This document shows positions 1 to 182 of a DNA stretch of 27,340 nt, in pieces. The stretch is from a virus. The notes beneath the pieces were generated by a model. The model saw only the letters and a program-made list of their open reading frames with translations, searched no databases and was not told where the DNA came from. The first letter of the stretch is position 1. Each line of letters starts with the position of its first letter. A program made the translations under genes and the position numbers. The stretch lies in the UHGV virus genome UHGV-0173860, one strand, 5' to 3'.

Positions 1-55
1 TATATATAGAAAATGATATGTTTTTTGTGTGACATGAGAGTTATTATCATTTACT
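1..55. repeat. 55-bp direct repeat, copy 1 (may extend upstream of window)
   Basis: Identical to 106..160 (tatatatagaaaatgatatgttttttgtgtgacatgagagttattatcatttact); contains TGTGACAT motif. Confidence 0.8.
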
Positions 56-105
56 CCAAATCTTGAAACTGCCGAGATATGAGTTTGTCACACAAAAAAG
101 TATTA

Positions 106-160
106 TATATATAGAAAATGATATGTTTTTTGTGTGACATGAGAGTTATTATCATTTACT
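106..160. repeat. 55-bp direct repeat, copy 2
   Basis: Perfect match to 1..55; spacer 56..105 carries ttgtca/tgtcacacaaaaaa partially complementary to the repeat core. Confidence 0.8.
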
Positions 161-182
161 TAAAATCATAAGGAAATATAAA

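Follow-up and report, generated by a model that had tools for sequence, protein, structure and literature searches.

A conserved AT-centred palindrome behind a UL9-like helicase gene as a candidate replication origin in low-GC enterobacterial prophages

The virus genome UHGV-0173860 (27,340 nt; this whole stretch of DNA is referred to below as the window) begins with two identical 55-bp sequences, at positions 1–55 and 106–160, and the question raised by this locus is what a perfect direct repeat signifies at the very edge of the sequence, ahead of the first early gene. An earlier reading of the sequence alone, made without database searches (the sequence-only reading), had proposed a regulatory or origin-like region: an iterated operator, a promoter duplication or a terminal repeat. 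When the locus was compared with its relatives, the conserved feature was found to be the inverted repeat inside each repeated unit, not the direct repeat. On comparative sequence grounds this palindrome is best read as a candidate cognate, hairpin-forming replication origin of a prophage, tandemly duplicated in the strain at hand, a reading that we rate at slightly under even.

The two 55-bp copies are identical (no such match arose in 100 shuffles), and the similarity between them extends to 62 nt with 2 mismatches. The spacer between them had been described as partially complementary to the repeat core; the complementarity stands, but it is complete, the 14-mer TGTCACACAAAAAA at 86–99 being the perfect reverse complement (14/14) of TTTTTTGTGTGACA at 21–34 and again at 126–139. 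Each unit is a perfect 14-nt inverted repeat, TGTCACACAAAAAA / TTTTTTGTGTGACA, with a 26-nt AT-rich spacer between the arms (85% A+T, containing (TA)5), which gives an interrupted palindrome of ∼54 bp. The strain of the window is not among the complete genomes, the best match being 99.7%, and the sequence upstream of the window was therefore taken from close relatives (loci are given by their L numbers). In L003, L004, L011 and L035, the full repeated unit is 82 nt long, from ATGAGTT and the left arm to ...CATTTACT, and the copies have a period of 105 nt, linked by the 23-nt joint CCAAATCTTGAAACTGCCGAGAT. Copy A is truncated by the window edge; in L003 its right arm pairs with its own left arm, 26 nt upstream. 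The features of the repeat region are as follows, with the strand given where there is one.

1–20: last 20 of the 26 nt of the copy A spacer; the missing 27 nt lie upstream of the edge (6 nt of spacer, the left arm and ATGAGTT) and correspond to L003 9637–9663, ATGAGTT + TGTCACACAAAAAA + GTATTA, directly before the first base of the window
21–34: copy A right arm, TTTTTTGTGTGACA, complementary (14/14) to 86–99
35–55: copy A tail, TGAGAGTTATTATCATTTACT, identical to 140–160
56–78: 23-nt joint, CCAAATCTTGAAACTGCCGAGAT, resembling a diverged TACTYnnAAATC tail
79–85: copy B left flank, ATGAGTT, which in single-copy strains follows the helicase stop codon and CTGG
86–99: copy B left arm, TGTCACACAAAAAA
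100–125: copy B spacer, GTATTATATATATAGAAAATGATATG, 85% A+T, holding the conserved core TATATATAGA
126–139: copy B right arm, TTTTTTGTGTGACA
140–182, plus strand: tail and 5' leader of the downstream operon, with a TACTTAAAATC box and the Shine-Dalgarno sequence AAGGAAA
183–338, plus strand: first gene of the downstream operon, 51 aa, without a family match; predicted as a gene in every E. coli relative
338–685, plus strand: T5orf172/GIY-YIG-superfamily protein, 115 aa, the conserved second gene of the downstream module

The repeat motif was not found elsewhere in the window, nor the E. coli arm motif elsewhere in the prophage. No direct-repeat family was detected besides the two 82-nt units, Tandem Repeats Finder returned nothing, and the locus holds no iteron array (at least three short direct repeats); what it holds is two inverted boxes around an AT-rich spacer. 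The related motif that had been reported at ∼5319–5338, upstream of TerS, dissolved on inspection: only the 8-mer TGTGACAT recurs; its five occurrences in the window, of which two lie within the repeats, compare with 1.8 expected and are attributable to chance, and neither the longer motif pattern nor the covariance model described below matched there.

The window was placed in E. coli chromosomes by an exact-protein look-up with its second gene. The region is a 33.7-kb prophage within yegD, the two halves of which form the prophage ends; related prophages in other strains adjoin msyB or rimO, with serine recombinases that differ. The gene order runs from a large serine recombinase through a 63-aa membrane protein, a 46-aa ribbon-helix-helix (RHH) protein and a 645-aa protein to the repeat region, followed by the 51-aa gene, the T5orf172/GIY-YIG gene, early genes, TerS, TerL, the portal and the head and tail genes, nearly all on one strand. 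The palindrome locus lies ∼4 kb inside the prophage from its left end and ∼5.4 kb upstream of TerS. The palindrome begins 11 nt past the stop codon of the gene for the 645-aa protein, a superfamily 2 (SF2) helicase, just upstream of the window, and in two-copy strains position 1 of the window is 33 nt past that stop codon. In the E. coli loci the basic unit reads stop codon, ATGAGTT, TGTCACACAAAAAA, 26-nt AT-rich spacer, TTTTTTGTGTGACA, TGAGAGTTATTATCATTTACT.

Two 82-nt units with the 23-nt linker are carried by L003, L004, L011, the metagenome contig L035 and the window, and the distance between the genes is 215 nt in L003 and L004 against 110–121 nt at eight other places. The two-copy allele is internal in three complete chromosomes, two draft genomes and one metagenome contig, and single-copy alleles occur with otherwise near-identical flanks. 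The locus is matched in 11 of 5,426 complete E. coli genomes, of which three have two copies and two have one copy in the same flanks. The direct repeat is thus a real strain-level tandem duplication of exactly two copies. The further upstream copies that had been anticipated do not exist; the relatives carry the stop codon of the 645-aa gene there instead. Extension of the window upstream, which had been proposed as a check, was achieved through these relatives and bore out the repeat, but it shifted attention from the direct to the inverted repeat. The 23-nt joint occurs only in the duplicated alleles (L003, L004, L011, L035); it is absent from IMG/VR and its source was not traced. The duplication is probably a neutral or dosage-type strain polymorphism.

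These prophages stand apart from described phages. The window has 35.6% G+C, far below the roughly 50.8% of E. coli, and no close relative among 50,697 phage records; its nearest terminase match is 34% identical. With the left end of the window as query, megablast and blastn gave no match in the phage collection, an exact IMG/VR search for the repeat core gave none, and no prior description of this yegD-inserted prophage was found in the literature.

To relate the palindrome to the gene in front of it, loci with helicase relatives were gathered from reference genomes, IMG/VR, metagenomes and exact look-ups, the 645-aa protein having 21 detectable homologues in a database of 5.8 billion proteins. 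The element was found at the same place behind ∼20 helicase relatives (30–88% identity) from Enterobacter, Pantoea, Erwinia, Phytobacter, Pluralibacter and metagenomes. A perfect inverted repeat of 11–16 nt was present in every relative down to ∼30% identity, bar a primase-linked subclade. The left arm starts 5–30 nt past the helicase stop codon (∼45–165 nt in L023, L045 and L046), and the spacer, 24–33 nt long with an A+T content of 75% or more, has a conserved core TCT(T)ATAWAWAGA, seen as TATTATAAAGAAA, CTATATAATAGA or TATATATAGAAAA. The arms are specific to each lineage, for example TGTACGCAGAAAAA, TGTTCCACAAAAA, AGGTAGCGGTTAG, GGTTCCGATTGTTG, ACCGCCCCGATCA and GTAACGCTTAGGA, and they are always complementary.

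The distant elements could not be aligned with MAFFT, and formal pair counts therefore refer to the ten closest elements; the rest were assessed by per-locus inverted-repeat detection and shuffles. Among the ten, 98.6% of the cells were paired, compared with 86.7% in shuffles, and 16 cells were double-changed against 5.1 in shuffles, a value that none of 500 shuffles reached; when the partner column was slid, the pairing was lost. The more distant groups have wholly different arms that are still perfectly paired, and the observed arm length of 11–16 nt was never reached in 300 shuffles per locus (maximum 9–11 nt). As shown by a covariance model built from these elements, matches occur only behind the helicase gene (window 82–169: 72.4 bits, E 1e-11), and none in the remainder of the window or of the 48.5-kb L011. 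When inverted repeats in general were sought, with perfect arms of 11 nt or more around an AT-rich spacer, the expected elements were recovered in the 27-kb window and in L011, all just past the helicase gene. Off this position only two weaker candidates appeared: L040/L041 have one upstream of their membrane-protein gene, and L051 has the other ∼200 nt downstream.

Two copies are not peculiar to E. coli, being present in 7 of ∼24 lineages. Tandem pairs were observed in E. coli type 1, L021/L022 and L045 (88-nt period), pairs flanking one gene in L016 (the T5orf172 gene) and L032 (a 53-aa gene), and heterotypic pairs, with different arms in one genome, in L014 and L046.

The arms were then compared with the modules on either side. 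L055 has membrane and RHH proteins 100% identical to those of L019/L033 together with a helicase and arms of the L048 type, and L040 and L030, likewise L048 and L014, have an RHH beta-strand in common and different arms; from these discordances, the arms do not follow the RHH protein. L040, with unrelated arms and a helicase that shares 38% identity with that of E. coli, is ∼90% identical to E. coli type 2 from ∼10 nt past the right arm, through the tail and the 51-aa gene. Therefore, the arms do not follow the downstream genes either, and the TACTT..AAATC tail belongs to the downstream module; the stretch 140–182 of the window is accordingly part of that module, not of the palindrome. Within the clade of L013, L014, L048, L049 and L055, the arms follow the C-terminal end of the helicase rather than its N-terminal core: L014 has the arms of L013, its closest relative in the C-terminal end (86%), not those of L048, its closest relative in the N-terminal core (95%). 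Overall, the arms appear to follow the helicase lineage and neither the RHH protein nor the downstream genes. The element marks the boundary between the replication and early-gene modules, where these phages recombine.

Apart from the gene for the 645-aa helicase, no replication gene is evident in the E. coli prophage. The 645-aa protein contains Walker A (GxGKT), DEAH and QxxxRxxR motifs, and no significant Pfam, PHROG or PDB sequence match was found, Pfam giving only DEAD below threshold. The AlphaFold2 model of a 98%-identical cluster representative has a predicted local distance difference test score (pLDDT) of 87 and a predicted TM-score (pTM) of 0.79. In the predicted viral structures of BFVD, its best matches are phage DEAD-like proteins and primase-helicases (E 1e-22 to 1e-19; query-normalized TM-score, TMq, 0.58–0.60), and the next are proteins of nucleocytoplasmic large DNA viruses and herpesviruses annotated as 'replication origin-binding protein' (E 1e-15 to 1e-10, TMq 0.38–0.49). 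In the relatives L024, L026 and L043–L047, the helicase gene is preceded by a gene resembling archaeo-eukaryotic primases (AEPs). Kazlauskas et al. (PMC5862659) described phage and plasmid SF2 helicases that are most similar to UL9 and are fused to or associated with AEP primases. Based on the structural model, the 645-aa protein is predicted to be a replication helicase of the UL9-like fold class.

A 57–63-aa protein ending in YDGEW(N/T)L is encoded directly upstream of the helicase in L013, L014, L025, L027, L048, L049 and L055, and YDGEW(T/N)L is also the C-terminal tail of the AEP-primase-like protein at the same position in L024, L026 and L043–L047. The small protein may be what remains where the primase was lost, a tail that docks onto the helicase.

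How the palindrome would work as an origin can be outlined by analogy. After excision, the helicase, probably through its C-terminal half, would engage the two inverted arms or their hairpin or cruciform, the AT-rich spacer between the arms would melt, and the host replisome would be recruited, much as UL9 acts at Boxes I and II, which flank the 18-bp AT spacer in oriS of herpes simplex virus (HSV). Given the anatomy, the conserved position, the arm covariation, the arm–helicase linkage and the helicase fold class observed here, we infer helicase binding, spacer melting and origin activity. An AT-rich element next to an initiator-type gene has the adjacency seen at rep-adjacent origins. The sequences suggest that shape and the conserved centre matter more than the arm sequence, because pairing is perfect at freely varying positions and heterotypic pairs occur in single genomes.

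Several observations weigh against this origin reading. No sequence-level match of the helicase to the Pfam family Herpes_ori_bp (PF02399) or to any PDB chain was found, and in the Foldseek comparison with PDB the top 50 structures were generic SF2 helicases only. Because the arms physically adjoin the sequence for the helicase C-terminus, the link between the two is confounded, and L018 is a counter-example, with a helicase 84–92% identical to that of L019 and an L017-like palindrome. The palindrome was not found in the fetched flanks of the distant primase-linked loci L024, L026, L029, L043, L044 and L047. The heterotypic arms of L014 and L046 are awkward for sequence-specific sites of one protein and fit structure recognition better. 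By eye, no resemblance to DnaA boxes, integration host factor sites or P4 iterons was consistent across the lineages. Finally, the structural genes look fragmented, and the element might not be replication-competent today.

Two other roles, at the level of RNA and of transcription, remain live alternatives. The palindrome could be an RNA element at the operon boundary, such as a terminator or attenuator, an RNase III site or a 3'-end stabilizer of the RHH–helicase mRNA, which the duplication has doubled; we think this unlikely. Its position immediately 3' of the stop codon, at the boundary of a recombination module, suits such a role, as does the folding of the E. coli unit into an interrupted stem of ∼21 bp (-26.9 kcal/mol, z = -3.5). 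G-U pairs are seen on the plus strand in the stem extension and in L032b, a T-run lies right past the right arm in about half of the lineages, and freely varying stems around a conserved loop are typical of RNA elements. Against this, a comparison of folding energies and G-U use between the plus and minus strands showed no asymmetry across the lineages, which divide 8 to 8, the window has no Rfam match, and the phage has canonical GC-rich terminators elsewhere, for example after int. Rfam on five related loci gave only an unrelated JUMPstart element and a tRNA-like match. A canonical intrinsic terminator was ruled out, the terminator scan being empty, the 'loops' being 24–33 nt long (3–8 nt in a terminator) and conserved in sequence, and no T-run being present in E. 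coli or in any lineage with GC-rich arms.

Alternatively, the element could be the promoter and operator of the long rightward operon, with a -10-like element in the spacer that is shut in the lysogen by the RHH protein at the pseudo-palindromic core TCTAT..ATAGA or by a structure-specific factor, which we likewise regard as improbable. TATAAT, TATAAA or TATATA is present in the spacer of almost all lineages, but such hexamers are expected in sequence of 85–90% A+T. In the closer group the left arm opens with an invariant TTG, 17–18 nt upstream of the hexamer; the distant groups lack a usable -35 element. The downstream genes are all co-oriented with no other repressor apparent, every primase-less lineage has the RHH gene together with the element, and RHH proteins such as Arc recognize TAGA-type half-sites. 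However, promoter-like sites numbered 4 against 3.9 expected from shuffles, and a position-weight-matrix scan of 17 elements revealed no consistent position or strand, with scores mostly below 8 bits. The arms do not co-vary with the RHH protein, and the spacer-core motif was looked for without success ahead of the RHH gene, the place expected for autoregulation. Binding of the RHH protein to the arms was rejected, as identical RHH proteins occur with unrelated arms; an RHH role at the conserved spacer core is possible but unsupported. Of the initial proposal of a regulatory or origin-like region, the origin-like part is favoured by the comparative evidence for a conserved non-coding palindrome between the helicase gene and the next operon. 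The promoter, operator and terminal parts fell away: no consistent sigma-70 promoter was found for a promoter duplication, and in place of an iterated operator there is a strain polymorphism whose arms show no co-variation with the only nearby DNA-binding regulator.

Less probable still is a recombinogenic boundary or cassette repeat without a dedicated function, which would persist and multiply through the slippage, unequal exchange and gene-cassette shuffling that it promotes, like the stem-loop cassettes of T4-type phages considered below. The two copies in 7 of ∼24 lineages, whether tandem, gene-flanking or heterotypic, and the module breakpoints at the edges of the element are in keeping with it. 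The fixed position and orientation, the perfect pairing and the spacer conserved across 30%-identical helicases argue for selection, and the element was never found elsewhere in the genomes examined. An assembly duplication, a contig-end artefact or a physical terminal repeat (including a cos or pac site), suggested by the first copy abutting the window edge, can be dismissed with near certainty, since the same duplication is internal in three complete genomes as well as in drafts and a metagenome contig, one-copy alleles sit in near-identical flanks, and the locus is internal to the prophage, which the yegD halves bound, with the integrase, small membrane protein, RHH protein and helicase genes upstream of it.

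Some further features of these prophages were recorded. In L003, at 7330–7430 (upstream of the window, before the RHH gene), an extended -10 promoter (TGnTATAAT) is followed by a ∼55-nt leader holding the conserved anti-Shine-Dalgarno-like AATTCTCCT, and then by a terminator hairpin with a covarying stem and the conserved loop (T)GTGACATT; equivalents are present in L032, L017, L030, L040 and L021. This element could be a small RNA or an attenuator of the RHH–helicase operon and might supply the immunity function that is otherwise missing. Just before the T5orf172 gene, several relatives have a GC-rich structured element of ∼57 nt, GGCRATAAAAAAGGCAGYCCGAAGRCCGCC...TTTATYGCC, with compensatory changes in both stems (L019 ∼3065–3125, L013 ∼6000–6060, L032 ∼6305–6362, L014 6197–6253; also in L017, L020, L027, L033, L048 and L049). 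It is absent from the window, matches no Rfam family, and on the minus strand reads as a strong terminator. In L011 (LR882990), a 2-kb early region with little annotation includes at 7530–7598 a weak tRNA-like gene listed as 'tRNA-OTHER' (Rfam 31.6 bits); no tRNA is present in the window.

Further downstream, between the early genes and TerS, the window encodes on the minus strand (3422–5242) a 606-aa OLD-family nuclease (AAA_15/AAA_21 and an OLD-like TOPRIM). This slot is variable, holding in other strains HNH and SMODS/SLATT genes, which resemble cyclic-oligonucleotide-based antiphage signalling systems (CBASS-like), or unrelated small genes, and it is a prophage defence hotspot. In the window and all E. 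coli relatives, structural genes are split into two or three partly overlapping open reading frames in different frames:

6049–8019: TerL
8521–10033: portal
10525–11902: protease-capsid
14371–16279: fibre

Some split points are common to the strains (the portal at 205 aa) and others are strain-specific, and the junctions are not at homopolymer runs. Prophage decay, programmed frameshifting and genuinely split genes are possible explanations.

Among known systems, T4-type promoter-stem-loop (PeSL) cassettes are short repeated stem-loops between small early genes, sometimes flanking single genes, at mosaic breakpoints. Unlike these, the element described here has only one or two copies, always behind one gene, with no convincing promoter and with a conserved AT-rich centre inside the stem-loop. 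The origins of Staphylococcus aureus pathogenicity islands (SaPIs) and other phage-inducible chromosomal islands (PICIs), 3' of rep, and ori/crr of P4 are AT-rich non-coding sites next to an initiator or helicase gene that vary with the initiator lineage; in these satellite and plasmid origins, short direct iterons in arrays are bound by a dedicated DNA-binding domain. The present element is likewise an AT-rich non-coding site immediately downstream of a helicase gene, but it consists of a single perfect inverted pair (13–16 nt) and no iteron array.

A closer parallel was found in Clostridioides phage-plasmids, which gave the only helicase matches in the phage collection (∼25% identity over the core; target-normalized TM-score, TMt, 0.70 to gp34 of phiCDHM11). 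These phages replicate as plasmids, and ParA is encoded next to the helicase module. In phiCD38-2, the homologue is followed by one small gene and then by 70-bp perfect and 64-bp near-perfect palindromes with (TA)n centres; they flank a 37-aa gene and have common outer arms and different inner arms. phiCDHM11 has, at the equivalent place, a 54-bp AT-centred palindrome, with different arms again. The palindromes, including those inside the 3' coding region of the helicase, are located as follows.

L058 (phiCD38-2) 4939–5008 and 5204–5267: downstream palindromes
L059 (phiCDHM11) 5863–5916: downstream palindrome
L058 4238–4299, L059 5241–5300 and L060 5249–5306: palindromes inside the helicase 3' coding region

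No report of an origin for phiCD38-2 or phiCDHM11 was found in the literature searched, and these palindromes are candidate origins, apparently undescribed. They resemble the E. coli element in lying downstream of a distant helicase homologue, in their length (54–70 bp), in their (TA)n centres, in their lineage-specific arms and in the two copies of phiCD38-2, and they differ from it in being uninterrupted through the centre.

The nearest functional analogue is the HSV origin, in which UL9 dimers bind the inverted Boxes I and II around a melting 18-bp spacer containing (AT)6, with the hairpin oriS* as an intermediate (PMC13261067). The prophage system differs from it in several respects. The helicase has no sequence-level membership in PF02399; the spacer is longer (24–33 bp) and is conserved too; closely related loci have freely diverging arms; the element follows the helicase gene directly on its 3' side and belongs to a temperate enterobacterial phage; and no ICP8-like protein or DNA polymerase is encoded in the region examined. 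As in oriS/oriL and UL9, an SF2 helicase with extra C-terminal domains, here with annotated UL9-type proteins among its structural neighbours, is combined with hairpin-capable inverted boxes that enclose a short AT/(TA)n-rich spacer, and two origin copies can occur. By this analogy, the element could be classed with initiator-adjacent origins, as a palindromic one of the UL9/oriS type from a novel prophage family, an assignment that falls a little short of an even chance. It is a more speculative and rather doubtful step that enterobacterial temperate phages and a distant Clostridioides family initiate replication as herpesviruses do, with a UL9-like SF2 helicase that would recognize an AT-centred palindrome behind its own gene mostly by hairpin or cruciform shape and the conserved centre; recognition of this kind would explain the compensatory drift of the arms and the tolerance of heterotypic and duplicated copies. 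Should the palindrome be the origin, it would define the replication module (RHH protein, UL9-like helicase and hairpin origin) of uncharacterized low-GC (35.6%) prophages with no close cultured relative. It would then also offer a simple bacterial model of how SF2 'origin-binding' helicases open AT-centred palindromes, a question that is open for HSV UL9, and the protein-level link of tailed phages with herpesviruses would gain a cis-acting counterpart. If the wider proposal holds, the system would be a prokaryotic counterpart of UL9–oriS, extending the kinship of the two virus groups from capsid and terminase to origin recognition.

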